64,000 bases of DNA from Candidatus Saganbacteria bacterium (GCA_016223205.1 JACRPM010000001.1:61072-125071), one strand, 5' to 3'; counted from the first letter of the stretch, positions 24,418 through 51,875 are shown. The notes: generated by a model not told the origin, from the sequence alone. Numbers and translations: made by a program.

Positions 24418-25401
24418 ATGAAAAAACATCTATTTAATAATAAATCTATTTTGATCACGGGTGGGACAGGTTCCTTCGGCAAGGCATTTTGCCGTATAGT
24501 ACTGGATGAATACCAGCCTGAGAGACTGATAGTTTTCAGCCGGGATGAGCTGAAACAGTACGAAATGAGCCAGCAGTATGCCGATCACGCCGATAGGATA
24601 CGTTATTTTATCGGCGATGTTCGCGATAAGGACCGCTTGATGCGCGCTTTTGACGGAGTTGATTATGTCGTCCACGCTGCCGCCCTCAAGCAGGTCCCGG
24701 CGATGGAATATAACCCTTCGGAAGCGATTAAGACCAACATTTATAGCGCGATGAATATCATTGACGCGGCGATCGATAAAGGGGTCAAACGGATCGTTGC
24801 CTTAAGCACCGATAAAGCCTGCAATCCGATCAATCTCTACGGCGCCACCAAGCTTTGTTCCGACAAGCTTTTCATTTCAGGCAATTCCTACGCCGGATTG
24901 CATGATACCCGCTTTGCCGTAGTCAGATATGGCAATGTCGTCGGCAGCCGAGGGAGCGTTGTCCCTTTCTTCAAATCTAAGTCCAAAGAAGGCGTCCTGC
25001 CGATAACGGATGAACGGATGACCCGTTTTTGGATTACCCTGCAGTTAGGAGTGCGTTTCGTCATCAAAAGCTTTGAGCGGATGCATGGCGGTGAACTCTT
25101 TGTTCCCAAAATACCGAGCATGAATATCATGGACCTGGCGAAGGCGATCGCTCCGAACTGCCGGACCGAGATTGTCGGTATACGTCCAGGTGAAAAGCTG
25201 CACGAAGTGATGATCTCCGAAGACGACGCCCGCCAGACCCTTGAGTTGGACGATTGTTACGTCATTAAGCCGGCTTTTAACTGGTGGGGGAAAGAGAATC
25301 ACGCAAGCGGAAAGCGCGTTGCGGACGGATTTTCCTACAGCAGCGATAATAATCCACATTGGTTGTCCATTCCGGAGCTGCAGCGGATGATCGAGGAGTA
25401 A
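24418..25401 (+). CDS. pseB: UDP-N-acetylglucosamine 4,6-dehydratase (inverting)
   Basis: ITGGTGSFG, SRDELKQ, HAAALKQVP, LSTDKA, YGATKLCSDK, RYGNVVGSRGSV and GIRPGEKLHE. Confidence 0.9.
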   Translation: MKKHLFNNKSILITGGTGSFGKAFCRIVLDEYQPERLIVFSRDELKQYEMSQQYADHADRIRYFIGDVRDKDRLMRAFDGVDYVVHAAALKQVPAMEYNPSEAIKTNIYSAMNIIDAAIDKGVKRIVALSTDKACNPINLYGATKLCSDKLFISGNSYAGLHDTRFAVVRYGNVVGSRGSVVPFFKSKSKEGVLPITDERMTRFWITLQLGVRFVIKSFERMHGGELFVPKIPSMNIMDLAKAIAPNCRTEIVGIRPGEKLHEVMISEDDARQTLELDDCYVIKPAFNWWGKENHASGKRVADGFSYSSDNNPHWLSIPELQRMIEE

Positions 25402-34756: not shown

Positions 34757-35784
34757 AAGCTATTGTTTTAAAGAAAAATGGGCTCCTGGCGCTGGAGAAT
34801 GCGGCCGATCCCAGACCGGGAAACAATGAGTGCTTGGTCAAGATCAGAGCGTCGGGCATTTGCTCTTCTGACATAAATCGCGCTTTTTATGGCGGTGCGT
34901 ATAAGACCCCTTTGATAATGGGACACGAGATCGCGGGAGAGGTAAGCGTGGCGGCGGTGGAGGGGAAAATGTTCGGCCGGGGCGACCGAGTGGCGGTTTA
35001 TCCGCTTTTGCCCTGCCATCATTGCGATTATTGCCGGACCGGCGATTATCAGCTATGCGTGAAGTATGATTATTTTGGGTCCAGAAGGGACGGTGGTTTT
35101 GCCGAATTCCTGGCGGTCCCGGAGAAAAACCTGGTCCCGATCCCCGACGGGGTCAGTTACGACGTGGCCGCTCTGGTCGAGCCGGCAGCCGTTGCCCTGC
35201 ATGGAGTTAGACAATTGAATATTAAGGATAATGCCGACGCGATCGTGTTGGGGGCTGGCCCGATCGGCAATCTGGCCGGGCAGTGGCTCAAGCTAGGCGG
35301 CTGCCGGAAAGTTTATATTGTTGACCGGCATGATGATAAATTGAAGGTCGCGGAACAAAACGGCTTGCTCCCCGTTAAAATAAAGCCGGGCGATATGCCT
35401 GATTTCCTGGTGAAGATCAGCGGGGGCGGGTTCCTTTACGTGGTCGAGGCGACCGGCGCCCCGGCGCTTATTGAGCTGGCGATAAAGATCGTCAGGCGTA
35501 AAGGCGAATTGCTGCTGCTGGGTAATATCAGCGGCGAATTGAAATTATCGCAAAGCCTGGTTTCTTCGGTCCTGCGCCGTGAGATCGGCATCCGCGGCAC
35601 CTGGAATTCCCGGATCGATGAGTGGCCGGAGGCGCTTAACGCCTTCAAGGATAAGCTCCAGGTGAAAAATCTGATCGGCAAGAAGGCCCCTTTGTCGGAT
35701 GGGGTGAAAGTATTATCTCTATTAAAAGATAGTAAAGCCGGCTTAAGCGGCGAATCATATTTAAAGGTGATGCTGGAAACATGA
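34753..35784 (+). CDS. Zn-dependent polyol(-phosphate) dehydrogenase (MDR)
   Basis: ICSSD, GHEIAG, CHHCDYC..C and LGAGPIG. Confidence 0.87.
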   Translation: MKAIVLKKNGLLALENAADPRPGNNECLVKIRASGICSSDINRAFYGGAYKTPLIMGHEIAGEVSVAAVEGKMFGRGDRVAVYPLLPCHHCDYCRTGDYQLCVKYDYFGSRRDGGFAEFLAVPEKNLVPIPDGVSYDVAALVEPAAVALHGVRQLNIKDNADAIVLGAGPIGNLAGQWLKLGGCRKVYIVDRHDDKLKVAEQNGLLPVKIKPGDMPDFLVKISGGGFLYVVEATGAPALIELAIKIVRRKGELLLLGNISGELKLSQSLVSSVLRREIGIRGTWNSRIDEWPEALNAFKDKLQVKNLIGKKAPLSDGVKVLSLLKDSKAGLSGESYLKVMLET

Positions 35785-36896
35785 AAAATATCCCTTACGC
35801 CGCCCAATCAATAGAAGATGATGATGTTGCCGCCGTGGCGCAAGCGTTGAAAGCGCCGTATTTGACCCAGGGACCGCTGGTCGGGCGCTTTGAGCAGGCT
35901 GTCGCCGCGTATTGCGACGCTAAATATGCGGTGGCCTTAAACTCCGGGACCTCCGCGCTGCATGCGGCTTGTTTTGCGGCGGGGATAAATAACGGCGCTG
36001 AAGCGATTACTTCGCCGATCACTTTTGTCGCGACCGCCAACGCGGTGCTTTACTGCGGCGGCCGGCCGGTCTTTGCCGATGTGCAGGCCGGAACGATAAA
36101 TATTGACCCCGCGCAAATAGCGGCCCGTATCAAGAAAAAGACCAGGGCCATCCTCCCGGTCCATTTTGCCGGCCAGCCGTGCGAAATGGAAAAGATCTCC
36201 CGCTTGGCAAAAAAACACCGATTGACGGTTATTGAAGACGCTTGCCACGCGCTGGGGGCTGAATATAATGGAAAAAAGGTTGGATCGTGCCGGTATTCCG
36301 ATATGACGGTCGTGAGTTTCCATGCTGTGAAGCATATCACCACCGGCGAGGGCGGCATGGTGCTGACCAATCGCCTGGACCTCTATAAGAAAATGCTTAT
36401 GTTCCGTACGCATGGGATCACCCGCGAGACCTCCGCTGAGGGGGCTTGGTACTATGAAATGCGGTTTCTGGGCTATAACTACCGGATCACCGATTTCCAG
36501 TGCGCGCTGGGGAACAGCCAGTTGAAAAAGCTCGATCGGTTCGTCGCCCGCAGGAGAGAGATCGCGGCCAGGTACCATGCCGCTTTCGGGAAAATGGCCG
36601 GGGTAACCACTCTTGATGAAAAGCCCGGCTGTAGATCGGCCTGGCATATCTATCCGATCATGGTTAAGGCTGACCGCCGGAAAGTGTTCGATAAATTACG
36701 CCGATCAGGGATCGGGGTCAATGTCCATTATTTGCCGGTATATTTGCAGCCGTATTATCAAGAAATGGGATATAAAAAGGGACAATGCCCGCAGGCGGAA
36801 AGATATTATGAGAAAGCGATCACTTTGCCTTTGTACCCCAAAATGACCGATCGGGATATTGAGGCGGTCATAAAAGCGGTCGGAGACGCGCTATGA
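35781..36896 (+). CDS. pseC: UDP-4-keto-6-deoxy-HexNAc aminotransferase, PseC type
   Basis: IPYAAQSI, LTQGP, NSGTSALH, EDACHALG, SFHAVKHITTGEGG and GYNYRITD. Confidence 0.85.
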   Translation: MKNIPYAAQSIEDDDVAAVAQALKAPYLTQGPLVGRFEQAVAAYCDAKYAVALNSGTSALHAACFAAGINNGAEAITSPITFVATANAVLYCGGRPVFADVQAGTINIDPAQIAARIKKKTRAILPVHFAGQPCEMEKISRLAKKHRLTVIEDACHALGAEYNGKKVGSCRYSDMTVVSFHAVKHITTGEGGMVLTNRLDLYKKMLMFRTHGITRETSAEGAWYYEMRFLGYNYRITDFQCALGNSQLKKLDRFVARRREIAARYHAAFGKMAGVTTLDEKPGCRSAWHIYPIMVKADRRKVFDKLRRSGIGVNVHYLPVYLQPYYQEMGYKKGQCPQAERYYEKAITLPLYPKMTDRDIEAVIKAVGDAL

Positions 36897-37768
36897 ACAA
36901 GCTCGCGCTGGGTACGGCCCAATTCGGAATGGACTACGGAATAAATAATCGCCGGGGGAAGGTCTCCCAGCGGGAAGCGTTTGAGATCCTTGATCTGGCC
37001 CTGGCAAACGGCATTGATACGCTCGACACCGCTGCCGGTTATGGCGAGAGCGAAAACGTTCTGGGTCAATACCTGAAGCAGAGCCAAAATAGCTTTAAAG
37101 TGATTTCCAAGTTGCCGGACGGGGCGGCTTCCGACCTTGCAGGAACGGTTAACGCTTCGCTGGAAAAACTTAATATCACTTCTTTTTACGGTTATCTTTT
37201 TCATAATTTTAAGACCTATCAGGAAGATCCCGGATCGCTCGATTCGCTCAAAGCATTAAAGAAGGAAGGGAAGATCGGTAAGATCGGTTTTTCTCTTTAT
37301 CATCCCGGTGATCTTGACCTTATCCTGGAAAACGGCCTGGCCTGCGACCTGGTCCAGGTCCCTTACAGCGTGCTTGACCAGAGGTTCGCGCCGTATTTCC
37401 AGCGTTTAAATGACCGCAAAATCGAGGTCCACGTCCGCTCGGTCTTCCTGCAGGGCTTGCTTTTTAAGCCGGCCAGCGAACTTAACGGTTATTTCTCTTC
37501 GGTTAAGGAGAAAATTGCCGCGCTGCGGCGGCTGGCAGAGGGGGCCCGGATCCCGCTGGCTTCAATGCTGCTCGATTTTGCTCTGGCTAACCGTTCGATC
37601 GACCGGGTGGTGGTCGGGGTCGACAGCCTGGATAATTTAAAAGAGCTGGTGGCTGCCGCTCAATATCTCGACAGCTTTGCGGCAATAAAGGACCGCTTGG
37701 CCGAGTTGAAAGAAACTGACGAGCGGATCATTCTCCCGTTCAACTGGACAGCGGGGGTGAGCGGATAA
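36893..37768 (+). CDS. Aldo/keto reductase
   Basis: KLALGTAQFG, LDTAAGYG.SE, IGFSLY and RSVFLQGLL. Confidence 0.85.
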   Translation: MNKLALGTAQFGMDYGINNRRGKVSQREAFEILDLALANGIDTLDTAAGYGESENVLGQYLKQSQNSFKVISKLPDGAASDLAGTVNASLEKLNITSFYGYLFHNFKTYQEDPGSLDSLKALKKEGKIGKIGFSLYHPGDLDLILENGLACDLVQVPYSVLDQRFAPYFQRLNDRKIEVHVRSVFLQGLLFKPASELNGYFSSVKEKIAALRRLAEGARIPLASMLLDFALANRSIDRVVVGVDSLDNLKELVAAAQYLDSFAAIKDRLAELKETDERIILPFNWTAGVSG

Positions 37769-38814
37769 TGAATGTCTTCTTTCGTGTCGATTCATCGCCG
37801 AAGATCGGGCTGGGGCATTTAATGCGCTGTCTGACGCTTGGGGAGGCGCTGGTTGATAAAGGGGTGAAGGTGTCGTTCATTTGCCGCGGGCTTCAGGACG
37901 ACATTCGTGAATTGGTAGAAGGTAAAGGGATAAAGACGCAGGAACTGCCCGACAGATCGACGGCTTCAGCCGCGGCAGATGCCGAAGATACAAAAAGAAT
38001 TATATTACGCGAAACCCCCAGGCCTGATTGGCTGGTGGTGGATAATTATGGCCTGGATAAGAGTTGGGAATCGCCAATGAGGGCAGTCGTGAAAAATATC
38101 ATGGTCATCGATGATCTGGCCGACCGTTCGCATGATTGCGATGTTTTGCTTGACCAGAACTACTTTGAGAATTTAGAAAATCGCTATGACGGATTGATCC
38201 CGGATAATTGCGCCAAATATCTTGGGCCGAAGTATGTGCTGCTCAGAAAAGAGTTTGTAAAAACCGAGAAAAGCGCTCGCGAGCGGGACGATCGAGTGCG
38301 GAGGGTCATGATCTCGTTCGGCGGGGCCGATCCCACGAACGAAACTGCGAAAGCGCTTGGCGCGATCAAGCGATTGGGAAAACCCGATTTCGCGATCGAT
38401 GTGGTAGTCGGCGCTTTAAACCCAAACAGAAAAGAGGTTGAGACGCTTTGTGCGATGATCCCAGAAGCGGTTATTTATTATCAGACAAATAAGATCGCGC
38501 AGATCATGGCGGCGGCGGACATCGCCATCGGAAGTGGTGGGGCGACGACTTGGGAAAGATGTTTTTTGGGATTGCCGACGATCACCCTGGTGTTGGCTGA
38601 AAATCAAGCGAAGGTCGCAGAGGATCTAGATGGTCGGAATATCATAATTAATCTGGGATGGTATAACAAAATAACTGAGGATGATCTGGCGCTGGCCGTA
38701 AAAAACTTGATCGCCGATCCGGGAAAACGGAGGGTGATGAGCCTTGCAGGCAGGCGGCTGGTGGACGGCAAAGGGGTCGAAAGAATTATTTCCGCGATCG
38801 GGGGGAGGCAATAA
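37768..38814 (+). CDS. pseG: UDP-2,4-diacylamido-2,4,6-trideoxy-altropyranose hydrolase
   Basis: FRVDSS..IGLGHLMRC, VDNY, VIDDL, LLDQN, FGGADP and GGATTWER. Confidence 0.88.
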   Translation: MNVFFRVDSSPKIGLGHLMRCLTLGEALVDKGVKVSFICRGLQDDIRELVEGKGIKTQELPDRSTASAAADAEDTKRIILRETPRPDWLVVDNYGLDKSWESPMRAVVKNIMVIDDLADRSHDCDVLLDQNYFENLENRYDGLIPDNCAKYLGPKYVLLRKEFVKTEKSARERDDRVRRVMISFGGADPTNETAKALGAIKRLGKPDFAIDVVVGALNPNRKEVETLCAMIPEAVIYYQTNKIAQIMAAADIAIGSGGATTWERCFLGLPTITLVLAENQAKVAEDLDGRNIIINLGWYNKITEDDLALAVKNLIADPGKRRVMSLAGRRLVDGKGVERIISAIGGRQ

Positions 38815-38815
38815 A

Positions 38816-39637
38816 ATGATCGGGATCATTGTCCAGGCGAGGATGAATTCTTCAAGATTGTACGGCAAGGTCATGAAAGAGGTCCTGGGCCGGCCGCTGC
38901 TCGAATTATTGGTCGAAAGACTAAAACAGTGCCGGCGGGCTGATGAAATCGTGATCGCCACTACTGTCGGAGCGGTGGATGACGAAATAGAGGATTTGGC
39001 GCGGAATTTGTCCGTAAAATTCCTGCGCGGAAGCGAAGACGACGTTCTGGACCGGTATTATCAGGCAGCCAAAAAGTTCAAGCTCGATCATATTGTAAGA
39101 ATAACGGCGGACTGCCCATTGATCGATCCAGAAATTATCGATCTCATGATCCAGTATTATGCCGACGGCGGCTTTAAATATGACTATCTCAGCAATGCTC
39201 TCAAGCCGACTTTCCCCGACGGCATGGATGTGGAGATATTCAGTTTTAAGGTGCTGGAAAAGATCGATCGGCTTTCCCAGGCCAAGTACCTGCGCGAACA
39301 TGTTTGCGGTTATATCATTGAAAACCCCGATCAGTTCAAGATTAAGAATTATGCGAATGACGAAGACCTGTCAAGTTTTCGCTTGACGGTCGATACGCCC
39401 GAAGATCTTGCTTTGGTGAGCATTGTATTTGAAAAATTGTATTACCCGCAAAAAACATTTCACCTGAAGGATGTCCTGGCATTTATTAAAGAAAACCCGG
39501 AACTGATGGCGCTTAACAGCAAATATAATAGGAACGAAGGTTTTTTGCTTTCTTTACAAAAAGAAGGCTATGATGCGGAGAAAGCGGAGCAGATCAAAAA
39601 TCTTATCATCAATAAGGAGAGATTACATGGAATTTAA
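38816..39637 (+). CDS. Cytidylyltransferase family 3 (SpsF/PseF-like)
   Basis: IVQARMNSSRLYGKV, RGSEDDVLDRY, RITADCP, REHV and RLTVDTPED; start 38816. Confidence 0.82.
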   Translation: MIGIIVQARMNSSRLYGKVMKEVLGRPLLELLVERLKQCRRADEIVIATTVGAVDDEIEDLARNLSVKFLRGSEDDVLDRYYQAAKKFKLDHIVRITADCPLIDPEIIDLMIQYYADGGFKYDYLSNALKPTFPDGMDVEIFSFKVLEKIDRLSQAKYLREHVCGYIIENPDQFKIKNYANDEDLSSFRLTVDTPEDLALVSIVFEKLYYPQKTFHLKDVLAFIKENPELMALNSKYNRNEGFLLSLQKEGYDAEKAEQIKNLIINKERLHGI

Positions 39638-40910
39638 AAGATCTTTAGAATTATATGAAAAAGCGATCAAGATCATTCCCTCCGCCACCCAGACGTTCAG
39701 TAAGGGGGCCCTGCAATATCCCTTCGGCGCCGCCCCGATCTTTTTAAAGAATGGGAAAGGGAGCCATGTGTGGGACCTGGATGGTAATGAGTTTATAGAT
39801 TATCCGATGGGACTCGGAGCGATCACCCTCGGGCACGCTTATCCCAAAGTCGATCAGGCAATAATTCGGCAGCTTGGATCGGGCATCTCCTATTCTTTGC
39901 CGCATCCTTTGGAGACACAACTAGCCGAGCTCCTTATCGAAATAATCCCTTGCGCCGAGATGGCGCGGTTTGGCAAGAATGGTTCCGATGCGACGGCTGG
40001 GGCGGTTCGCGCGGCCAGGGCGTATACCGGAAGAGATAAGATCGCCTGTTGTGGTTATCATGGCTGGCAGGATTGGTATATCGGGACCACCACCAGGAGC
40101 GCGGGCGTACCGCAGGCGGTGAGTGAATTGACCCTGACTTTCAATTATAATGATATCGACAGTTTAAAAAATGTGTTTGCCGAAAACGACGGGCAGATCG
40201 CCGCAGTGATCATGGAGCCGATAGGGATCATCGAGCCAAAAGATAATTTTCTTCAACAGGTAAAAGGCCTTGCCCATAAGAACGGCGCGTTATTGATATT
40301 CGACGAAGTAGTGACCGGTTTTCGGATGAGCCTGGGCGGCGCGCAGCAATATTACAAGGTGATCCCCGACCTGGCGTGTGTCGGAAAAGGGATGGGCAAT
40401 GGGATGCCGATCTCCTGCGTGGTCGGCAAAAAAGAAATAATGGCGATATTCGACGAGGTTTTCTATTCTTTCACTTTTGGGGGCGAGTGCCTGTCATTGG
40501 CGGCTTCGATTGCGACAGTACGCGAAATGATCGATAAGGATGTTATTAAGGGGATATGGGCCAAAGGGAAGAAGCTGCAGGACGGCTTCAATGATCTGGC
40601 CAAAGCTTTGAACATGGCGCGTATAGCTCGCTGCGTCGGCCTCCCTCCGCATACCGTCATAACCTACGATGACCTGGGGGGTATCGATCCGCTCTTGGTC
40701 AGGACCTTATTCCAGCAGGAAGCGCTAAAAAGGGGCGTTCTGGCTATCGGGGTCCATAACACCTGTTATTCGCATTCCGACGACGATGTCGCCAGTACCT
40801 TAAAGGCGTATGATGAAACGCTTCAGATCATAAAGGAAGCCCTAAAGGACGGCGATATTCACAGGTTTTTAAAAGGGAAGCCGGTCCAGGCGGTATTTCG
40901 CAAACCATGA
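39627..40910 (+). CDS. Class III PLP aminotransferase (GSA-aminomutase-like)
   Basis: WDLDGNEFID, KNGSDAT, GYHGW, FDEVVTGFR and GKGMGNG; start 39627. Confidence 0.85.
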   Translation: MEFKRSLELYEKAIKIIPSATQTFSKGALQYPFGAAPIFLKNGKGSHVWDLDGNEFIDYPMGLGAITLGHAYPKVDQAIIRQLGSGISYSLPHPLETQLAELLIEIIPCAEMARFGKNGSDATAGAVRAARAYTGRDKIACCGYHGWQDWYIGTTTRSAGVPQAVSELTLTFNYNDIDSLKNVFAENDGQIAAVIMEPIGIIEPKDNFLQQVKGLAHKNGALLIFDEVVTGFRMSLGGAQQYYKVIPDLACVGKGMGNGMPISCVVGKKEIMAIFDEVFYSFTFGGECLSLAASIATVREMIDKDVIKGIWAKGKKLQDGFNDLAKALNMARIARCVGLPPHTVITYDDLGGIDPLLVRTLFQQEALKRGVLAIGVHNTCYSHSDDDVASTLKAYDETLQIIKEALKDGDIHRFLKGKPVQAVFRKP

Positions 40911-40920
40911 GGAGTAAAAA

Positions 40921-42057
40921 ATGATTTATCAGATATTCCTGCCTAAGTTCGGGGCGAACATTGAATCGGGGACGGTCGTTGAATGGCTGAAGAAAGAGAA
41001 CGAGCCGGTGACCAAAGGACAAACGATCGCCCTGATCGAGACCTCAAAAGCGGTCTTTGAATTGGAAGCGGAGGAATCCGGGACGCTTAAAAAAATCCTG
41101 GCCGGCGAAGGGGAGGAAGTTGCTTTTAATCAGACCATAGGCATTATTGCCGGGGCCGAAGATGATATTACGGAAACGTTAGCCGCGATCAGGGCCAAGA
41201 AAACCGACCGTTCCGCGGAATTCGTCAGGGAAATGGACCGGGGAGTTTTTGACGCGAAGCCGGCGGGGCAAAATATCAGCGAGCGAAAAATGACCCCGGC
41301 CGCCCGCAGGCTTGTAAGGGAAAATAAAATAGGTAAAGACGTTTTAAGCGGGACCCAAAAAGATGTGATCGAGGAAAAAGATATTTTAGCGCTGGCCGGC
41401 GCCGGCCAGGTTTATATTTACGGGGCTTCGACCGGGTGCAAACAGATCATGGAGATATTGAAAAGCGGGCGTAAATATAAGGTCCTGGGAATTATAGACG
41501 ATAATGCTGAATTCCACGGCCGGCGCATAGAAAACTATGAGGTCATGGGCGGGTTTGATTGGTTGAAAAAGAAATATGAAGAAAACCCCGATTTTGGCGT
41601 AATGATCGCGTCGCACTCCACCAACCGGGAAAAGATCTATGATCGGATCAAAGAAAATATGCCGGACTTGAAGCTGCCGCCGATCATTGATGAAAGGGCT
41701 ATTTTGCTGTCGGGAGTGAAGGTGGGGGAAAGCAGTTTGATCGAGGCGGGGGTCATTCTGGGTCAGGAAGTGGAAATCGGGAAGAATGTCATCTTGAATT
41801 TGGGGGTAAAGATCTCTCATAACAGCGTGGTCGGCGACCACTCTCATGTGGCGCTGGGGGTTAGCATGTCGGCGGCGGTCGTCGTAGGTAAAAACGTGTT
41901 TATCGGGGCGGGTGCGGCGATAAATCCGGCGGTTTCTATCGGTGAAAATTCGATGATCTCTCCGGCCACCGCGGTTTTGCATGATATTCCGGAAAATGTC
42001 ATCGTCAACGGCGTGCCGGGAAAGATAGTGGGGGAAAGCAAGCGTGGCAAACAATAA
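40921..42057 (+). CDS. Lipoyl domain + PSBD fused to a PglD/NeuD-type hexapeptide sugar acyltransferase
   Basis: aa 1-80 lipoyl fold (IETSK43AVFELEAEESG); aa ~123-156 PSBD-like (TPAARRLVRENKI); aa ~161-378 IYGA..GIIDD Rossmann lobe plus LbH with H300/H309. Confidence 0.85.
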   Translation: MIYQIFLPKFGANIESGTVVEWLKKENEPVTKGQTIALIETSKAVFELEAEESGTLKKILAGEGEEVAFNQTIGIIAGAEDDITETLAAIRAKKTDRSAEFVREMDRGVFDAKPAGQNISERKMTPAARRLVRENKIGKDVLSGTQKDVIEEKDILALAGAGQVYIYGASTGCKQIMEILKSGRKYKVLGIIDDNAEFHGRRIENYEVMGGFDWLKKKYEENPDFGVMIASHSTNREKIYDRIKENMPDLKLPPIIDERAILLSGVKVGESSLIEAGVILGQEVEIGKNVILNLGVKISHNSVVGDHSHVALGVSMSAAVVVGKNVFIGAGAAINPAVSIGENSMISPATAVLHDIPENVIVNGVPGKIVGESKRGKQ

Positions 42058-43009
42058 TCTTGATCAACTGATCAACTTCTATAAGTTGATGCTGAAGGTC
42101 CGTATTTTTGAAGAGAAAATAGATTGGCTGTTTTCCCGGGGCCTGCTCGGCGGGACGAGCCATATGTGTATCGGGCAGGAGGCGGTGGCGGCGGGTATTT
42201 CGGCTAATTTGAATTTGGACGATTATGTGATCAGTTCTCACCGCGGCCACGGCCACTTGATCGCCAAAGGGGGCGAGGTCCGGAAGATCTTTTCCGAGTT
42301 GATGGGCAAGGTCGACGGTTACTGCCAGGGCAAGGGCGGCACACAGCATCTTTGCGCGAAAGAGATCGGTTTTTATGGGACCAATGGGATCGTCGGCGGC
42401 GGCATTCCGGTCGCCACCGGGATCGCGCTGTCGATAAAGCTGCGCCGGAGCCGGCAGGTCGCGGTTGTCTTCTTCGGCGATGGGGCGACTAACCAGGGGA
42501 CTTTCCATGAATCGCTGAACATGGCTTCGATCTGGGGCCTGCCGATCTTATTCGTTTGCGAGAACAATCTCTACGGCATGTCCGCGCCGGTGAGTAAAAT
42601 GACCAATATAAAAGATCTCGCGCGGCGAGCGGATGCCTACAATATAAAAAGCCATATTGTCGATGGCATGGATGTGGAGGCGGTTTTTGCCCGGTCCGGG
42701 GAAGCGCTCAACTACATCCGGGACTCGCAGAAGCCGTGTTTTATTGAAGCGAAGACCTACCGGCATTGCGGACATTCGAAAAGCGATGCCCGGGTTTACC
42801 GGACCAAAGAGGAAGAAAAATGCTGGCGGGAAAAGGATTGCCTGGACGTTTTAAAAACTCGCTTGATCTCCCTGGGATTTGCGGCGGAGCAAATGGACAA
42901 GATCAAGGCTGAGACGGAACAGGAGATCGAAGCCGCTTGGAAATTAAGCGAAAAAAGCGAAGATACGCCGCTGTCCTTGGGGCTCAAAGGGGTATACAAA
43001 GATGGCTAG
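42044..43009 (+). CDS. ThDP-dependent dehydrogenase E1 alpha subunit (PdhA/AcoA-like)
   Basis: HMCIGQEA, SHRGHGH, GIVGGG, GDGATNQG...CENN and RHCGHS. Confidence 0.92.
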   Translation: MANNNLDQLINFYKLMLKVRIFEEKIDWLFSRGLLGGTSHMCIGQEAVAAGISANLNLDDYVISSHRGHGHLIAKGGEVRKIFSELMGKVDGYCQGKGGTQHLCAKEIGFYGTNGIVGGGIPVATGIALSIKLRRSRQVAVVFFGDGATNQGTFHESLNMASIWGLPILFVCENNLYGMSAPVSKMTNIKDLARRADAYNIKSHIVDGMDVEAVFARSGEALNYIRDSQKPCFIEAKTYRHCGHSKSDARVYRTKEEEKCWREKDCLDVLKTRLISLGFAAEQMDKIKAETEQEIEAAWKLSEKSEDTPLSLGLKGVYKDG

Positions 43010-43988
43010 GCTCATTACTTACCGGGAAGCGATCCGGGAAGCGATCGCCGAAGAAATGAGCGGGAATGACAAGGTCATTTTCCTGGGCGAGGATATCGGC
43101 GCGTATGGAGGAGCGTTCGGCGTGAGCAAAGGCTTGCTGGAACGGTTCGGGGCCGGACGGGTCATTGAGACCCCGATCTCCGAGAACAGCATTGTCGGGG
43201 TGGGTGTGGGCGCCGCCATGGCCGGATTCTGCCCGATCGTGGAGATCATGTTCATGGATTTTATCACCCTGGCGATGGACCAGATAGTTAATCATGCCGC
43301 CAAAATACATTATATTTACAGCGGACAGCTTAATGTCCCGCTGACCGTGCGGGTCCCGGCCGGGGCGGGAAAAGGGTATGGCGCCAGCCACTCGCAAAGT
43401 TTGGACTGCTGGTTCCTGAACGTTCCGGGCTTGAAAGTGGTGGCGCCGTCAAACCCGTACAGCGCCAAAGGCCTTTTGAAAAGCGCGATTAAGGACCCCA
43501 ATCCGGTCATTTTTATTGAAAATAAAATGCTTTATGACTTCAAGCAGGAAGTTCCGGAAGAACCGTATTATTTGGAGATCGGGAAGGCGGAAACGCTGTT
43601 GGCGGGGACCGATGTTTCGCTGATCTCGTACGGGCGGGCCCTGCATCTTTCTTTGGCAGCGGCTAAAATAGCGAAAGAAGCGGGCATTTCCGTTGAATTG
43701 ATCGATCTGGCCACCTTAAAACCGCTGGATACCGGGACCATTATAAATTCCGTTAAGAAGACCGGGAAAGCGGTAATTGTTGAGGAAGGGCATAAAACTT
43801 CCGGCGTGGGAGCCGAGATCGCGGCTTTGATCTCGGAGGAATGTCTGGAGTATATGAACGGGAAAGTGGTCAGGGTCGCGGCGGAAGAGTGTCCGATCCC
43901 TTCAGCGCAAAAACTCGAGGCAGCGATCCTGCCGAGTGTAGAAAAGATCACCGCGGCGATAAAAAAGGCTTGTTTTAGCTATGAATGA
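43002..43988 (+). CDS. ThDP-dependent dehydrogenase E1 beta subunit (PdhB/AcoB-like)
   Basis: GEDIG, ETPISE, EIMFMDF, HSQS and PGLKVVAPS. Confidence 0.92.
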   Translation: MARLITYREAIREAIAEEMSGNDKVIFLGEDIGAYGGAFGVSKGLLERFGAGRVIETPISENSIVGVGVGAAMAGFCPIVEIMFMDFITLAMDQIVNHAAKIHYIYSGQLNVPLTVRVPAGAGKGYGASHSQSLDCWFLNVPGLKVVAPSNPYSAKGLLKSAIKDPNPVIFIENKMLYDFKQEVPEEPYYLEIGKAETLLAGTDVSLISYGRALHLSLAAAKIAKEAGISVELIDLATLKPLDTGTIINSVKKTGKAVIVEEGHKTSGVGAEIAALISEECLEYMNGKVVRVAAEECPIPSAQKLEAAILPSVEKITAAIKKACFSYE

Positions 43989-44718
43989 CAAAAAGGTCAT
44001 CTTGACGGCGCATCAGCCGGTCTATCTGCCGTGGCTGGGATTGTTTCACAAGATCTCCCTGGCTGACATGTTCGTCTATTTTGACGATGTCCAATACCAG
44101 ACAAAAGATTGGAACAATCGGAATAAGATCAAGGCCGATCAGGGGGATATCTGGCTGACCGTTCCGGTGTTCAATAAGGACCATTATCAAATTAAATTAA
44201 AGGACGTTGTGATCGACAACAAGCAGCCGTGGGCCAGAAAACATTTTAAATCGATATATATCGCGTACAAGAAGGCCAAATATTTTGACAAGCAGATCGG
44301 CTTCTTTGAGGACATGTACAGCAAAAAATGGGAGAAGCTGGCGGACCTGAATGAATATATGTTAAAACATTTTATGAAAGTACTGGGAATCGAGGTTCCG
44401 TTCTTTAAGCTCTCGGATTACGGTTTTACTTCCAGCAAATCTGAGCTGGTCCTGGAGATGTGCAAGAAAATGGGGGCGGACTTGTATATTTTTGGGGCGC
44501 AAGGCAAGAATTATGCGGATATCGAGGCTTTTAAAAATGCGGGCATAGGCGTTTATTTCCAGGATTACCAGCACCCGGTTTACGGGCAGCTTCACGGGCA
44601 GGAATTCAACTCATTCCTTTCGATCGTCGACCTGCTTTTTAATCACGGGGAAGAGAGCCTGGGTATAATTCAGTCGGGCAATATAACCAAAGAAGAATTG
44701 TTGAGGAGTATGATCTGA
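43981..44718 (+). CDS. WbqC-family protein (putative aminoacyl transferase)
   Basis: AHQPVYLPWLGLF, DDVQY..W.NRNKI, WLTVPV and LSIVDLLFN. Confidence 0.88.
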   Translation: MNDKKVILTAHQPVYLPWLGLFHKISLADMFVYFDDVQYQTKDWNNRNKIKADQGDIWLTVPVFNKDHYQIKLKDVVIDNKQPWARKHFKSIYIAYKKAKYFDKQIGFFEDMYSKKWEKLADLNEYMLKHFMKVLGIEVPFFKLSDYGFTSSKSELVLEMCKKMGADLYIFGAQGKNYADIEAFKNAGIGVYFQDYQHPVYGQLHGQEFNSFLSIVDLLFNHGEESLGIIQSGNITKEELLRSMI

Positions 44719-44720: not shown

Positions 44721-45779
44721 ATGAAAAACAAGACGATAAAGATCGGGAAAAAGACAATTGGGAGCGGGCAGCCCTGCTATTTTATTTCCGAGATCGGCAA
44801 TAATCACGGGGTGGATCTGAAATTGGCGAAGCGATTGATAAAGGCTTCTGCTGAAGCGGGTACGGACGCCGTGAAGTTCCAGACGTTCCGGGCCCTGGAT
44901 ATTGTCAACCCAAACGTGACCGCCAAATCTTGTGCTTCAACTGGTTGGGACGTGTCCGACCGGTTCGATTACTGGTACCAGTTTGTCGAAACTTTAGTGA
45001 TGCCTTATGAGTGGTATGATGAATTGATCGCCTACACCCGGAGCTTGGGAATGGCTTTCATATCAACGCCGGCCAGCCTGGAGGCCGCCCATTTTCTGGC
45101 CAAGAAGAAAGTGGACGCCCTCAAGATCGCTTCCATGGACCTTAACAACATCCCTTTCCTGAAGGAAGTCGATAAGCTCGGTTTGCCGGTGATCCTCTCG
45201 ACCGGCATGGCAACAGCGGAGGAGATCGGCGAGGCTGTCAGTGCTATAAAAAGATCACCCCTGGCTTTGCTCCATTGCGTTTCTAATTATCCGTTAAGAC
45301 CGGAAGACGCAAATTTAATGAACATCAAGATGCTGCAAGACCGGTTTTCTCTCCCGGTCGGGTTTTCCAACCATGCTCTGGGTGATGAGCTTGATATCGT
45401 GGCGGTTGGTTTAGGCGCCGGCATAATTGAAAAACATTTTACGTTCGACCGTAAAGACCCCAGAATCGCCGAACATCATTTTTCCATGCTCCCGGCAGAA
45501 ATGAAAGAAATGGTCGGGAAAGTCAGGCTGATCGAAAAAGCCTTGGGGAATTATCACAGGACCATGACGGAAAGCGAATTGAGAACGAGAGATATTGCCA
45601 GAAGGAGCATTACGACAATAATAGAAGTAAAAAAAGGGGCGGTAATTAAAAAAGATGACCTGGGGTTCATACGGCCCGGCACGGGGATCGAGCCGAAGCA
45701 TATAAAAGAGATCATCGGCAAGCGAGCGCGGAGAACTATAAAAAATTATCAGTTAATAAAATGGGAGGATTTGATTTAA
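44721..45779 (+). CDS. pseI: Nonulosonate synthase (NeuB/PseI family) with SAF domain
   Basis: ISEIGNNHG, VKFQTF, KIASMD, LSTGMA, LHCVSNYP, GFSNH and IEKHFT; co-located with pseB/C/G. Confidence 0.8.
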   Translation: MKNKTIKIGKKTIGSGQPCYFISEIGNNHGVDLKLAKRLIKASAEAGTDAVKFQTFRALDIVNPNVTAKSCASTGWDVSDRFDYWYQFVETLVMPYEWYDELIAYTRSLGMAFISTPASLEAAHFLAKKKVDALKIASMDLNNIPFLKEVDKLGLPVILSTGMATAEEIGEAVSAIKRSPLALLHCVSNYPLRPEDANLMNIKMLQDRFSLPVGFSNHALGDELDIVAVGLGAGIIEKHFTFDRKDPRIAEHHFSMLPAEMKEMVGKVRLIEKALGNYHRTMTESELRTRDIARRSITTIIEVKKGAVIKKDDLGFIRPGTGIEPKHIKEIIGKRARRTIKNYQLIKWEDLI

Positions 45780-46737: not shown

Positions 46738-47436
46738 ATGAAAGTCGCTATATTTTCTGATATACACTGCAATTTGCCCGCTTTTGAAAAAGTTATGGAA
46801 AAACTTATCGCGGAAAAAGCGGACCAATATATTTGTTGCGGGGATATATGCGGGTATTACTATTTTCAAAATGAGGTTATTGGCTTGCTGCTCGGCCTGA
46901 AAAATCTGATAGGCATAGCGGGTAACCATGATAAATTATTCCTGGATTGTTTAAGCGACGATAAATTGCTGGCAAGTTATTCCGAGAAATACGGCAACTC
47001 TTTTTATGCTCTAAAGGAAAAAGTCACTGCCCAAAGCCTGAAATATTTAAAGGGGCTGCCGGAGTCTTATATCGATCTGGAAAATGATTTTGCGGTTTTC
47101 CATGGGAGTCCCCGCGATCATCTTAATGGGTATATTTACCCTACGGATCCTTTGGCTGAATTTGCGGGTCTCCCGTATAAATACGTTTTTTTAGGCCATA
47201 CCCATTATCCTATGATGCGCGCGGTAGGCGATATTACGATCATTAATCCGGGCGCTTGCGGCCAGCCGAGAGATGGGGGGGCGCCTTCCTACGCGATCCT
47301 GGACACGGAGACCGGGAAAAGCGAGATAAAAAGGGTCGAATATAGCGCCCAATCCCTGATCGCTGAAATAGTAAAGCGTCAGGAAAAATACCGGTATTTG
47401 ATCTATGTCTTGGAAAGAAGGGGGCCCGCGCAATGA
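46738..47436 (+). CDS. Metallophosphoesterase (YfcE-like)
   Basis: SDIHCN, CGDICG, GNHD, HGSP, GHTH and NPGACGQPR. Confidence 0.87.
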   Translation: MKVAIFSDIHCNLPAFEKVMEKLIAEKADQYICCGDICGYYYFQNEVIGLLLGLKNLIGIAGNHDKLFLDCLSDDKLLASYSEKYGNSFYALKEKVTAQSLKYLKGLPESYIDLENDFAVFHGSPRDHLNGYIYPTDPLAEFAGLPYKYVFLGHTHYPMMRAVGDITIINPGACGQPRDGGAPSYAILDTETGKSEIKRVEYSAQSLIAEIVKRQEKYRYLIYVLERRGPAQ

Positions 47437-48395
47437 AAGAAATATCGATCTTGGTGACGGGAATAGGGGGGGATATCGGAGAGAACATTATAAAGTGCCT
47501 TGAGGAATCCGTCCGTACCTATTTAATGTTCGGTTGCGATATGGACCGATATCCCTCAGGGAAGAAAAGGGTTTCGGAGTATTTTCAGTCCCCTCCTGCC
47601 GGCAGGGGGAGCGAATATACTGATTTCTTGAAGGAAATTATTCAACGCAAGGAAATTGATTATGTCTTCCCGTCTTCGGAAGCGGAGATCGACTATTTCA
47701 ATAATAATCGCGGTTTATATGATGCTGGCAGAGCAAAGATCGTCATTAACAATAAATTGATACTGGATAATTTTCTCGACAAGTATAAGACCAGTGTCTT
47801 CCTGAATGGCCATGGATTCCCTTTTCCAAGGACGTTTTTAATAAATGAATATGGGGACGAGCTCACATACCCCTTTGTCCTGAAAAAGCGGAGAGGCTCC
47901 GGAAGCAAGATTGTGTTGATCATACGCGATCGCAAGGACATGGAGTTTTACAAGGAAAAATATCAAAATGAAGATCTGATCGTTCAGGAATATTTGGGGA
48001 ATGTGGATCAGGAATATACTGTCGGCGTATTTTCCGACGGCAATAATACTTATTCAATGGCTTTCAGACGCTACCTCTCTTCGGATGTCGGCATTACAAA
48101 ATATGCCGAGTTGGTGATCGATAAGGAGCTGGCCCAATTAAGTGAAAAAATAGCTGAATGCACGGATTTACGGGGATCATTGAATATTCAGGCCAGAAAG
48201 ACCGATCGGGGATATGTTCCGTTTGAAATTAACCCCCGCATATCGGGGACGGCTTTTGTCCGTCACCGGTTTGGTTTTAAGGATGTCCAGTGGTGGCTGG
48301 ACGCGTTCGAAAATAGGCCGATCTCGTATTCTCCCGCATATAAGCATGGGGTCGGGGTCCGGTCGATTTCAGAGGTTTTCTATGATATGTATTAA
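47433..48395 (+). CDS. ATP-grasp ligase
   Basis: ILVTGIGG, DKYKT, LKKRRGSGS, VQEYL and FEINPRISG. Confidence 0.85.
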   Translation: MKEISILVTGIGGDIGENIIKCLEESVRTYLMFGCDMDRYPSGKKRVSEYFQSPPAGRGSEYTDFLKEIIQRKEIDYVFPSSEAEIDYFNNNRGLYDAGRAKIVINNKLILDNFLDKYKTSVFLNGHGFPFPRTFLINEYGDELTYPFVLKKRRGSGSKIVLIIRDRKDMEFYKEKYQNEDLIVQEYLGNVDQEYTVGVFSDGNNTYSMAFRRYLSSDVGITKYAELVIDKELAQLSEKIAECTDLRGSLNIQARKTDRGYVPFEINPRISGTAFVRHRFGFKDVQWWLDAFENRPISYSPAYKHGVGVRSISEVFYDMY

Positions 48396-49125
48396 AAAGA
48401 TACTGGTGATCGCGGCCCATCCCGATGATGAAGTGTTTGGTTGCGGAGCGACGATCGCCAAACACACTAAAGCCGCCGCCGATGTCTTTTTGCTCGTTTT
48501 TGGCGACGGCGTTACCGCCAGAATTTTTCAGTCGGGGGTTTCGAGGGAGAAAGAGCTCAAAACGGCTTCAGCGACAATAGAGAGAAGGCAGCGAGAGCTG
48601 CACCGCGCGGCCGGTATCCTGGGGATCAAACCAGAGAGGATCAAGTATTGTGGTTATCCCGATCAGCGGTTTGACGCGGTTCCGATATTGGATATTATAA
48701 AGGAAATTGAAGCGATAAAAAGTGATTTTGCCCCGGAGATCGTTTATACCCATCACTGGGGGGATTTGAACCGGGACCACCGGGTCGTCTACGAGGCGAC
48801 CGTAACCGCCTTTCGGCCGAAATATGGCAGCAAAACAAGCGCGGAAATACTATGCTATGAAATACCGGGCAATATGGATATTTTACAGCCCTTGTCTGCT
48901 AACCGCTTTAAGCCGGATGTTTTGGTCGATGCTGGCGACACGTTCGACATTAAGATGGAAGCCGTGAAGGCATATGCAAGTGAATTGAATGCGGCCGGGC
49001 CGTTATCGGTTGAAGGGCTGATCGCCCAGGGAAAGAAAAGGGCCGGGAAAACAAAATATAAGATGGTCGAGGCTTTTGTTGGGTGCGCCGCGACCAAAGG
49101 AGGGATTTATGGAAAAACATTTTAG
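48382..49125 (+). CDS. PIG-L/LmbE family de-N-acetylase
   Basis: AHPDDE, DQRFD and THHWGDLNRDH; start 48382. Confidence 0.88.
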   Translation: MICIKKILVIAAHPDDEVFGCGATIAKHTKAAADVFLLVFGDGVTARIFQSGVSREKELKTASATIERRQRELHRAAGILGIKPERIKYCGYPDQRFDAVPILDIIKEIEAIKSDFAPEIVYTHHWGDLNRDHRVVYEATVTAFRPKYGSKTSAEILCYEIPGNMDILQPLSANRFKPDVLVDAGDTFDIKMEAVKAYASELNAAGPLSVEGLIAQGKKRAGKTKYKMVEAFVGCAATKGGIYGKTF

Positions 49126-49786
49126 CCCATCGGTCTTTTTATCCGGGGATTTAGTATATTTAAGAACGCCGGATATTGAAAAAGATGTCATCAGCGGTAA
49201 ATGGCATGCTTGGCTTAACGATAAGGCTACGACCAGGTATGTGCTCCAGGGGATCTACCCGAATACTATCGAAAAACAGATTGAATTTGTGTCATCTGCT
49301 GAAAATGATAAAAGCAAAATGTTGCTTTGCATTATTGATAAGAGCAACAACAAACATATTGGGGTCATCTCATTTAGCGATATTGACCTTTTAAACAGGA
49401 AAGCCGCTATTGCTATCTTGATGGGCGATGATTCTTATCCCCCCGGGGCTCCTTTGGAAGCAATAGCATTAATGATTGAACACGGTTTTGATCGTCTAAA
49501 TCTGAATAAAATATATTCAGCACAAGTTGCCGAGCTTTGTAAATGGTCGAATCTGGCGGAATTGGTTGGCTTTAGGATTGAAGGATACGTCGAATCGGCC
49601 ATGATTAGAAACGGTCGACAGTACGATGCGATTTGTCTTGGTGTGACGGCTGAAAGGTTTTATGCCTTAAAAAGGGAGCGTGGCGGCGACATCCGTTCCA
49701 ACAATATTGAAGAGTTGATAAATAAAAGGCGGAAAGACAATCTAGCCGTTTTAATTAAGGATTATATAGCTAGTTTATATAAATAA
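49109..49786 (+). CDS. GNAT N-acyltransferase (RimJ/RimL-like; candidate PseH-type)
   Basis: WLND, HIGVISF, AIAILMG, GFDRLNLNKI and GFRIEG; start 49109. Confidence 0.78.
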   Translation: MEKHFSPSVFLSGDLVYLRTPDIEKDVISGKWHAWLNDKATTRYVLQGIYPNTIEKQIEFVSSAENDKSKMLLCIIDKSNNKHIGVISFSDIDLLNRKAAIAILMGDDSYPPGAPLEAIALMIEHGFDRLNLNKIYSAQVAELCKWSNLAELVGFRIEGYVESAMIRNGRQYDAICLGVTAERFYALKRERGGDIRSNNIEELINKRRKDNLAVLIKDYIASLYK

Positions 49787-49843
49787 TTGGCATGGGAGTG
49801 GCGAATAGGTCCGTGACCGAGAGAAAAGAAGGGGAAGGGGAAA

Positions 49844-50776
49844 ATGAATAGAAATATTATTGGAATAGAAGAAATAGCCTCATACATCCCAGAGGGAAGG
49901 ATATCCAATTATGATCGGAAAGAGCAGTTTGGCATAAACGATCATTTTATCGAAAAAAAGATTGGTGTCAAAAAGGTTGCAATCAAAGCTGCGGACGAGG
50001 AAACCTCGGATCTATGTTTTAAGGCTTTTGGGGCGTTGTCGAATAAGATAAATATTGAGAAGGGAAAAATTGATGTTGTCTGTGTAATAACGCAGAATCC
50101 AGATAGTAACATCCCTCATACCTCAGCCAAACTTCACGGCCTGCTTGATTTGCCGGAGAAATGTGCTTGTTTTGATATCTCTTTAGGTTGTTCGGGATAT
50201 GTTTACGGCCTTTCAATTATAAAATCATTTATGGATGAAAATTATTTAAGTAATGGACTGTTGTTCACGGCGGATCCTTATTCCAAAATAGTGGATAAGA
50301 ATGATAAAAATTCTTCACTACTTTTTGGGGATGCTGCGGCTGTTACCTTGATGTCCAGCAAGCCGGTCTTGAAATTAGGCCGATCATTATTTGGGACAAT
50401 TGGCAAGCAATATTCGGCCCTGACTTGCGAAAATGGCAAATTATTTATGGACGGATCAGCCATATTTGTATTTGCCGCGAAATATGTGCCCGAAGATGTC
50501 ACTGCGCTTTTGAAAATCAACTCTTTATTATTAGAGGACATTGATAGATTTATATTTCACCAGGGAAGCAAATACGTCGTTAATACGATATCGAGCAATC
50601 TGGGTTTGGATCCGGCTAGGGTGGCTTTTGATATTTACGATTATGGGAATACTGTCTCATCAAGTATCCCGATTATCTTAGAAAAGGAAATCGTTAAAAA
50701 AGAGAATAAGCGGATATTGATAAGCGGCTTTGGTGTCGGGTTGTCCTGGGCAAGCGGGATTCTAAACAGATTATAA
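49844..50776 (+). CDS. Ketoacyl-ACP synthase III-like (FabH family) 1
   Basis: DISLGCSGY, FGDAAA, FHQG and GNTVSSSIP (C-H-N triad). Confidence 0.87.
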   Translation: MNRNIIGIEEIASYIPEGRISNYDRKEQFGINDHFIEKKIGVKKVAIKAADEETSDLCFKAFGALSNKINIEKGKIDVVCVITQNPDSNIPHTSAKLHGLLDLPEKCACFDISLGCSGYVYGLSIIKSFMDENYLSNGLLFTADPYSKIVDKNDKNSSLLFGDAAAVTLMSSKPVLKLGRSLFGTIGKQYSALTCENGKLFMDGSAIFVFAAKYVPEDVTALLKINSLLLEDIDRFIFHQGSKYVVNTISSNLGLDPARVAFDIYDYGNTVSSSIPIILEKEIVKKENKRILISGFGVGLSWASGILNRL

Positions 50777-50792
50777 TAGAAGGAAAATATTA

Positions 50793-51875
50793 ATGTCAAA
50801 ATCGTTAATTAGCGGCGCAAAAATATCCGGGATAGCGGTCGTATCTGCCGATAATCTTAAGCGCATGGATGATGATATGGAATACTATAATGGGGATAAG
50901 AAGAAACTGGAAAAAGTCAAGAAAATGGTCGGGTTGGATAAAAGATATGTGGTTGATGGCCAGACTACCGCAGCGGATTTGTGCGAGTCGGCGGCTATTG
51001 CTCTTATTAATGATATGGGTGTAAATAAGGAAGAAATTGGTGCTTTAATAATGGTCACGCAAACCCCGGATTATTTTTTGCCGGCCACATCAGCGTATCT
51101 TCATGGGAAATTAAATCTCTCAAAAGATTGCGCCGCTTTTGATGTCAGCTTGGGCTGTTCGGGCTATATATACGGTTTATGGCTGGCATTTATGATGGTG
51201 GAAAATAAAAGTGCCAAAACGGTCTTATTGTTGGTGGGGGACACTATAAGCAAGCTAACCAATGCGAAAGACAAGACGGTGTCCCCTTTATTTGGTGATG
51301 CCGGTAGCGCTACCTTGATACAAAGCTGCGAGCTAGACAGGAAAACATATTTTTCATTCCATACGCTGGGGCTGAAATATGACCGGTTGATTGTCCCGGC
51401 CGGAGCTTTCCGAAAGCAGAAAAACCAAGAGACTGCTAAAGAAATATCTTATGGCGACGGGAACACGCGAAGCGCGGAAAACCTTTACATGAATGGTGCC
51501 GAGGTCTTTGATTTTACTTTGGAAGAGATACCGTTGGCTATTAAAGAGATACTTGGTTTTGCGGGCAAGACTCAAGATGAAATCGATTATTTTGTTTTCC
51601 ACCAGGCCAATAAGCATATCATTGAAAGCATCGCTGCTTTGTCCGGAGTACCTTCGGAAAAAGCTCCTTTAGTTATTTCTGAATACGGCAATTTAAGCTC
51701 TGTTTCTATCCCGGCCACAATATGCGGAGCAATGAGGCAAGACTTGACCGGGCCTAATAAGAATGTGCTTATGTCCGGCTTTGGGGTCGGCTTGTCTTGG
51801 GGGACGTGTTTGTTGGGCCTAAAAGATATTTATTGCCCGGAAATTGGATTTTATAAAGGAGGGAATCATGACTAA
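50793..51875 (+). CDS. Ketoacyl-ACP synthase III-like (FabH family) 2
   Basis: DVSLGCSGY, FGDAGSA, FHQAN and GNLSSVSIP. Confidence 0.87.
   Translation: MSKSLISGAKISGIAVVSADNLKRMDDDMEYYNGDKKKLEKVKKMVGLDKRYVVDGQTTAADLCESAAIALINDMGVNKEEIGALIMVTQTPDYFLPATSAYLHGKLNLSKDCAAFDVSLGCSGYIYGLWLAFMMVENKSAKTVLLLVGDTISKLTNAKDKTVSPLFGDAGSATLIQSCELDRKTYFSFHTLGLKYDRLIVPAGAFRKQKNQETAKEISYGDGNTRSAENLYMNGAEVFDFTLEEIPLAIKEILGFAGKTQDEIDYFVFHQANKHIIESIAALSGVPSEKAPLVISEYGNLSSVSIPATICGAMRQDLTGPNKNVLMSGFGVGLSWGTCLLGLKDIYCPEIGFYKGGNHD

Follow-up and report, generated by a model that had tools for sequence, protein, structure and literature searches.

What would a lipoyl arm be doing on a sugar acyltransferase? The question is raised by a gene in a 64,000-nucleotide stretch of DNA from Candidatus Saganbacteria bacterium (GCA_016223205.1, JACRPM010000001.1:61072-125071), the whole of which we call the window. 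At 40921..42057 on its plus strand is an open reading frame (ORF) of 378 aa that joins a lipoyl domain, a linker, a degenerate peripheral-subunit-binding domain (PSBD), a PglD_N Rossmann-like domain and a left-handed beta-helix (LbH) acyltransferase. It is followed on the same strand by the two subunits of a thiamine diphosphate (ThDP) enzyme, E1 alpha (42044..43009) and E1 beta (43002..43988). An earlier note, made from the sequence by itself, placed the three ORFs at these coordinates, and they are found there. It proposed that E1 loads an acyl group onto the lipoyl arm and that the LbH domain hands it directly to a sugar nucleotide, bypassing acyl-coenzyme A (acyl-CoA). We argue that the fusion and its E1 probably form a module of three proteins that N-acylates amino-sugar nucleotides independently of CoA.

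The two ends of the fusion have different relatives. Pfam finds Biotin_lipoyl (PF00364) at residues 4-76 (E 4e-16), PglD_N (PF17836) at 164-242 and Hexapep (PF00132). Sequence matches in the PDB are to the E2 lipoyl domains of pyruvate dehydrogenase (PDH) at the N-terminus and to VioB, PglD and PerB in the C-terminal half. The lipoyl domain (residues 1-80, 40921..41160) has the motif E40-T41-S42-K43-A44, with the K43 codon at 41047-41049. The AlphaFold (AF2) model of the fusion has a mean pLDDT of 74.9, with the lipoyl barrel at about 90. Strands 35-40 and 45-49 form a hairpin with K43 at its tip. The model has three short helices at the PSBD position, then the Rossmann-like domain and the left-handed beta-helix. 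Foldseek matches it to lipoyl domains (TM 0.76-0.9) and also to VioB, PglB-ATD and PerB. A biotinyl domain was considered and ruled out, since the MKM motif is lacking, E2 lipoyl domains are the top matches by both sequence and structure, and some relatives of the gene have LplA neighbours.

The resemblance to E2 continues past the lipoyl domain. When the fusion family is aligned to 14 E2 proteins with hhalign, residues 1-161 fall on E2 residues 1-168 (probability 99.8, E 1.8e-30), and this stretch takes in the lipoyl domain, the linker and the PSBD. The PSBD is at residues ~122-160 (41284..41400), with helices at 126-134, 139-142 and 152-159. The Pfam E3_binding model has no match on the fusion at E 0.01, yet hhalign places the domain. 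The earlier description of it as degenerate is correct, because the 'TPAARRL' motif is kept while the 'GxGPGGRI' loop is lost.

The resemblance ends where the catalytic core of an E2 should begin. The CAT-like E2 domain (PF00198, HxxxDG) has no Pfam match on the fusion. Residues 162-368 (41404..42024) are instead a PglD/VioB-type sugar N-acyltransferase module that matches VioB (7txp), PglD (3bss) and PerB (4ea7). These best structural relatives all N-acetylate 4-amino-4,6-dideoxy sugar nucleotides. The NCBIfam model TIGR03570 (NeuD/PglB/VioB) scores 156.6 bits on residues 164-368, just under its cut-off of 160.8. The codon of the catalytic H300 is at 41818-41820. The segment ISH300NSVVGDHSH309 aligns with PglD IEHECVIGEFSH and both pairs of His are 9 residues apart, which bears out the earlier matching of H300 and H309 to the PglD pair. 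The earlier note also drew attention to a Ser where PglD has Glu before the catalytic His. The Ser is there, but it is not distinctive. VioB, the best PDB match, likewise has Ser-His, so no special meaning attaches to it. On these sequence comparisons the fusion is probably an E2 with its CAT-like core replaced by a PglD-type sugar N-acyltransferase.

This architecture is not a peculiarity of one genome. When 1.84 billion representatives (clusters at 50% identity) were searched exhaustively with a profile, 3112 matches reached E <=1e-30. The best 150 of these, down to 206 bits for the 150th, are mostly full-length fusions of 340-400 aa. A word-indexed search found about 22 clusters of the same architecture. 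In a set of 44 representatives with 24-46% identity to the window protein, invariance is confined to four residues, K43 and H300 among them. K43 is also invariant in 18 close homologues. The lipoyl domain and its lysine were read correctly in the earlier note. The PglD_N nucleotide-sugar-binding domain is retained throughout the family. The cultured carriers found are Geobacter sulfurreducens (AAR36412.1, annotated by architecture only) and Thermobaculum terrenum (WP_012876728.1), with no others. We know of no glycan structure for either organism.

The E1 genes deserve equal attention. E1 alpha, the ThDP-binding subunit, matches E1_dh (E 1e-82). E1 beta matches Transket_pyr and Transketolase_C and scores 393 bits on PRK09212, which has a cut-off of 321. 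The overlap is 14 nt between the fusion gene and E1 alpha and 8 nt between E1 alpha and E1 beta, so the overlapping pair described earlier is real, and from this arrangement the genes are predicted to be translationally coupled. Residues were compared by alignment to the human, B. stearothermophilus and T. thermophilus enzymes. E1 alpha retains the GDG..NN ThDP motif and the His equivalent to human alpha-H263, and E1 beta retains the equivalents of E59 (the activating Glu) and H128. The alpha-His and beta-His of characterised E1s serve the reductive acylation of lipoamide. The ThDP motif and the alpha-His are conserved in 48/48 fusion-linked E1 alphas.

The same 48 proteins all have T, H and K where human PDHA1 has F61, Y89 and M265 (T61/H89/K265 in the window protein). 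This signature is also in loci L119 and L120 and in all 120 best database homologues of E1 alpha. It is absent from human PDH and from a PDH-type operon (L118). The window E1 alpha is 49.5% identical to that of a Brevibacillus E1-E2-E3 operon and 42.9% identical to that of C. difficile, where a sigma-54 regulator adjoins the operon. Relatives are called 'acetoin:DCPIP oxidoreductase' by some sources. From their context and the names given by these sources, we take the reference E1-E2-E3 operons to be true aco operons. Judged by its sequence, the fusion-linked E1 belongs to the acetoin-dehydrogenase-like clade. The earlier note had a generic 2-oxoacid E1, and this needs correction given the T and H at human PDHA1 F61 and Y89. 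A classic pyruvate PDH E1 can be rejected too, because the enzyme has the T/H/K signature of the aco-like clade instead. The known chemistry of the acetoin-dehydrogenase clade is ketol cleavage, not pyruvate decarboxylation.

Two loci show other settings of this clade. L037 (6222-8283) has an orphan aco-type E1 alpha/beta pair amid glycoside hydrolases, without a lipoyl partner. L119 (5959-10725) has an aco-type E1-E2-E3 operon after a phosphotransferase system sugar transporter and a sugar-binding regulator. Aco-type E1s may act on sugar-derived ketols in such contexts.

Is the neighbourhood of fusion and E1 maintained? We compared 54 loci, the window included, that carry a full-length fusion and span over 15 phyla. 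Represented are Margulisbacteria, Alphaproteobacteria, Desulfuromonadota/Deltaproteobacteria, Spirochaetota, Planctomycetota, Chloroflexota, Actinomycetota, Zixibacteria, Ignavibacteria, Omnitrophota, Acidobacteriota, Gemmatimonadota, Armatimonadota, Bacteroidota, Bacillota, Myxococcota, SAR324 and others. E1 beta adjoins the fusion in 52/54 loci and E1 alpha in 50/54. Of the four without a full E1 pair, L057 is cut at a contig edge, L067 has the fusion 600 nt from a contig end, L059 misses just the E1 alpha match and L012 truly has no E1 nearby. The gene order is fusion, E1 alpha, E1 beta in the clade of the window, and E1 alpha, E1 beta, fusion in the Geobacter clade. In 19 loci with the latter order E1 is a single polypeptide of ~650 aa. 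A lipoate ligase gene, lplA, immediately adjoins the fusion in 3/54 loci (L016, L017 and L072). The last of these, from an Eisenbergiella metagenome-assembled genome (MAG), has the order E1ab, fusion, LplA, E3-like flavoprotein. An E2 core is not found in any of the 54 loci. Within the 64 kb window, tblastn with E3 and E2-core queries found neither an E3 nor an E2 catalytic domain, as the earlier note had it.

The genes around the module point to amino sugars. A DegT sugar aminotransferase is present in 33/54 loci and a PglC-like Bac_transf in 13/54. A GFO_IDH_MocA dehydrogenase is directly upstream in 13/54, and there the fusion takes up the acetyltransferase position of a WbpB/WbpE/WbpD-like layout. 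NeuB occurs in just 8/54. Homologues of the fusion therefore do co-occur with E1 in glycan loci (50-52 of the 54). The earlier note needs correction in that the module is not specific to pseudaminic acid, and in most loci its context is a bacillosamine-like or WbpB/WbpE-like amino-sugar one. Given these counts, the module is portable and serves several amino-sugar pathways. ORF clustering found no conserved donor-making gene across the 54 loci, and we dropped the idea of reading the acyl group from conserved neighbours for this reason. In the Geobacter sulfurreducens locus (L038, 8046-11116) a fused E1 alpha-beta of 652 aa, the lipoyl-LbH fusion and a DegT gene are neighbours of flaG and of giant, multidomain glycosyltransferases. 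The setting suggests an island for glycosylating flagellin or surface proteins.

The most plausible route for the acyl group would have these steps. A lipoate ligase (LplA) would attach lipoate to K43. E1 alpha/beta would dock on the fusion, probably via the PSBD remnant, and would cleave a small ketol or decarboxylate a small 2-oxoacid. It would then reductively acylate the lipoyl arm to give an acyl-dihydrolipoyl thioester. The arm would enter the active site of the LbH trimer in place of the acyl-pantetheine of acyl-CoA. There H300 would deprotonate the sugar amine and the acyl group would move to the nitrogen, giving an N-acyl sugar nucleotide. E3 (dihydrolipoyl dehydrogenase) would re-oxidise the arm, and it would be encoded elsewhere in the genome, as opposed to in the operon as in one relative. 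In the window the PseC product, UDP-4-amino-4,6-dideoxy-beta-L-AltNAc, is the likely acceptor. On this view the fusion would stand in for PseH and determine which acyl group a pseudaminic-acid derivative bears at N7. The adjacency of E1, the invariance of K43 and H300 and the linkage to LplA and E3 all speak for the core of what the earlier note proposed. Its chemical steps are deduced, and its link to a donor supplied by an Rpe-family epimerase is unsupported.

Which acyl group would be carried? Membership of E1 in the acetoin-dehydrogenase-like clade favours acetyl or glycolyl, cut from a ketol or 2-oxoacid, and such a C2 unit is the most likely cargo. We would put acetyl somewhat below an even chance. 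Glycolyl is a more tentative choice, and a group other than these two is equally tentative. A ketol donor is plausible beside 2-oxoacids. Acetoin or a 1-deoxyketose could give acetyl, and a ketose phosphate could plausibly give glycolyl by analogy with the Qnc/Nap systems. One can imagine a bolder scenario in which a protein-tethered lipoyl thioester serves here, for the first time in glycan biosynthesis, as the acyl donor and installs a non-acetyl group for which there is no cellular acyl-CoA pool. That would account for the source of the unusual N-acyl groups carried by nonulosonic acids and by bacillosamine-like sugars. We regard this scenario as doubtful. If the group is non-acetyl, N-glycolyl is the most attractive form, cut by E1 from a ketose phosphate or from hydroxypyruvate, and this analogy with Qnc/Nap is speculative.

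Several points weigh against a CoA-independent module. We infer lipoylation, loading by E1 and the use of the lipoyl thioester by the LbH domain from sequence, and the acceptor and the donor are inferred too. To our knowledge acyl-CoA is the donor for all characterised PglD-family enzymes, and the fusion sequence shows no sign of CoA-site loss. If the group is plain acetyl, the module would offer no obvious benefit relative to acetyl-CoA. The Geobacter clade does not keep the PSBD Arg pair. Apart from the Eisenbergiella MAG no locus has an E3 (53/54 are without one, the window among them), so turnover depends on a housekeeping E3. In L012, a Rubrobacter MAG, the fusion (2958-4124) has no E1 within 3.3 kb downstream. 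There a GFO dehydrogenase is upstream and the downstream ORFs have no Pfam match. It must also be noted that in the window a weak PseH-like GNAT and the other acyltransferases of the locus could perform the PseH step.

The last point requires a look at the rest of the window, which is a large glycan locus. PseB, PseC and PseG were called by NCBIfam equivalog cut-offs, and all the genes of this group are on the plus strand. PseB, an inverting UDP-GlcNAc 4,6-dehydratase (24418..25401), scores 541 bits on TIGR03589 against a cut-off of 408. The PseC aminotransferase (35781..36896) scores 514 on TIGR03588 against 423, and the PseG UDP-sugar hydrolase (37768..38814) scores 301 on TIGR03590 against 153. 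The locus is therefore of the pseudaminic-acid type, as first described. The PseF role would fall to a CTP_transf_3 cytidylyltransferase (38813..39637; PF02348, E 2.4e-33) that is recognised by Pfam only. The PseI role would fall to a NeuB-family nonulosonic acid synthase (44721..45779; PF03102) that is below the NeuB and PseI cut-offs. The fusion gene is between PseC/PseG/PseF and PseI. A PseH equivalog was not found in the window, where the only GNAT candidate (49076-49786) reaches 37 bits against a cut-off of 93.1. Since PseB, PseC and PseG are present and a PseH equivalog is absent, the fusion is the best candidate for 4-N-acylation.

The alternative that survives best keeps the module and changes its target in the window. 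The fusion might act at N5 after de-N-acetylation by a PIG-L enzyme, or might O-acylate as NeuD does. A PIG-L deacetylase, a GNAT, an ATP-grasp enzyme and a KASIII/ACP/SDR line (ACP, acyl carrier protein) are all in the window, and NeuD-type relatives, which give TIGR03570 part of its name, O-acetylate sialic acids. On the other hand, the best structural relatives all work on the nitrogen of 4-amino-4,6-dideoxy sugar nucleotides, the gene is placed among those for the pseudaminic-acid steps, and the window has no PseH equivalog. We consider this alternative unlikely.

The second alternative is that the fusion is an ordinary PglD-like N-acetyltransferase that uses acetyl-CoA. The lipoyl/PSBD part would then be a docking or regulatory appendage, for example one that tethers the E1 of another reaction or senses pyruvate or redox state. 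The characterised relatives VioB, PglD and PerB are all acyl-CoA users, the NeuD/PglB/VioB model nearly reaches its cut-off, and the PSBD is degenerate. However, a docking tag would not require an invariant K43 across a very divergent family, nor operons that carry lipoate ligase and E3, nor an E1 that keeps its lipoamide-reducing His residues. This makes the appendage slightly less probable than a different target. The weakest alternative is that the LbH domain is a minimal E2. It would take the acyl group off the lipoyl arm and pass it to CoA, or to some other small thiol or carrier, and so make a local acyl-CoA pool for other transferases of the locus. This alternative gains from the absence of an E2 core nearby and from the fact that LbH enzymes are trimers with a pantetheine-binding groove resembling the CAT-like E2 trimer. 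It is very improbable when the nucleotide-sugar domain PglD_N is kept family-wide, a sugar aminotransferase is adjacent in 33/54 loci and there is an invariant catalytic His of the kind that acts on an amine as general base.

Much of the rest of the window may serve other lines. A class-III aminotransferase that is GSA-aminomutase-like (39570..40910, plus strand; PF00202; 458 bits on PRK06209, under the cut-off of 486) lies before the fusion. A WbqC-family protein (43981..44718, plus strand; PF08889, E 2e-74) is translationally coupled to E1 beta. These two and an AKR (36893-37768) are with the module only in the close Pse-type clade (>60% identity). At 27306-32128 are a zinc alcohol dehydrogenase, an Rpe-like epimerase, a xylose-isomerase-like TIM barrel, a 190-aa ORF and two nucleotidyltransferases. 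We take this sub-cluster to resemble an NDP-polyol-phosphate line of the ribitol or arabinitol type (TarI/TarJ, AbpA/AbpB), and it appears separate from the E1 module. The earlier note had the Rpe at 28356 supplying xylulose-5-P. This is unsupported, though not disproved, as the gene sits in that polyol-phosphate-like sub-cluster, apart from the module. Among the Pfam matches listed for related loci there is no Rpe-like gene.

A second acyl line at 47433-52857 has an ATP-grasp enzyme, a PIG-L de-N-acetylase, a GNAT, two KASIII, an ACP-like ORF and an SDR. The ACP-like ORF (51844-52095, 83 aa) is unannotated and has the motif 'EWDSLTVMSMV', and the KASIII/SDR cassette is 10 kb from the fusion. 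Its function could be to deacylate the other amino group and then acylate it anew, with a 3-hydroxyacyl group for instance. The paralogous ORFs at 25408-27309 and 32852-34756 (~633 aa, 28% identical) each have ~6-7 hydrophobic segments and no Pfam match. One adjoins PseB and the other adjoins a family 2 glycosyltransferase, and both may represent a novel kind of polymerase or transferase. At 54430-60307 three soluble ORFs in a row (627-657 aa) have no Pfam match and no mutual similarity. At 60304-62869 a second CTP_transf_3 cytidylyltransferase is followed by a 3-dehydroquinate-synthase-like (sugar-phosphate-cyclase-like) enzyme and then an SDR. These genes may lead to a further CMP-activated sugar or cyclitol.

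The donors of the sugar N-acyltransferases we know of are acyl-CoA, acyl-ACP or formyl-tetrahydrofolate, or else ATP-grasp chemistry is used. A lipoyl arm fed directly by a ThDP enzyme would be a new donor class. It would also mean that the E2 scaffold is modular enough for its catalytic core to be exchanged with an unrelated fold. Such modules could account for odd N-acyl decorations on flagellin, S-layer, lipopolysaccharide and capsule sugars, and decorations of this kind shape antigenicity and phage or host recognition. The family is widespread and is present in the genetically tractable Geobacter sulfurreducens. Its function would be hidden in plain sight, because its members are publicly labelled 'NeuD/PglB/VioB acetyltransferase', 'PDH E2' or 'hypothetical'. 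In the T. forsythia literature the enzymes for N-glyceroyl and N-glycolyl nonulosonic acids are stated to be unknown (PMC5378307), and the module could bear on a question of this kind.

How does the system compare with known ones? It has the N-terminal lipoyl hairpin Lys, linker, a degenerate PSBD and the adjacent E1 genes of the E2s of 2-oxoacid and acetoin dehydrogenases. It differs in that the CAT-like core is swapped for PglD_N and LbH, the presumed acceptor is an amino-sugar nucleotide and not CoA, and E3 is usually outside the operon. With PglD, VioB, PerB and NeuD it shares the two-domain build, H300 in the place of PglD H125, an LbH domain that is trimeric by homology, and the association with DegT aminotransferases and PglC-like transferases. 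Unlike them it has ~160 extra N-terminal residues and the linkage to E1, and its presumed donor is a tethered acyl-dihydrolipoyl group and not acyl-CoA. The presumed AcoA/AcoB-type operons of Brevibacillus and C. difficile share the E1 alpha signature GTxH / SxHRGHG / GHSK, with E1 alphas at 43-50% identity, but they carry a canonical E2 and E3 and have a catabolic role. PseH fills the matching pathway slot, but it is a GNAT of unrelated fold and its acyl donor would differ.

Full-text literature searches found no paper describing a lipoyl-acyltransferase fusion, two Geobacteraceae genome papers make no mention of it, and the searches agree with the earlier note that no described glycan pathway is built in this way. 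The closest precedent is the QncN/QncL/QncM system of quinocarcin, where a lipoyl arm hands a ThDP-derived glycolyl unit to an acceptor other than CoA (PMC6335953). By their described chemistry, these proteins and NapB/NapD of naphthyridinomycin are like the proposed fusion system in that an E1-like ThDP enzyme loads a C2 acyl group on a lipoyl arm. The E1 halves are also fused into longer polypeptides in both. The difference is in what follows. In Qnc a normal E2-type domain passes the unit to the ACP of a nonribosomal peptide synthetase, whereas here the LbH domain would pass it to a sugar amine. The fusion system has no E2 core and the sole ACP-like ORF is 10 kb away. The logic of dehydrogenase complexes is known. 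What is probably new is a dehydrogenase-complex scaffold with its E2 core swapped for a sugar N-acyltransferase.

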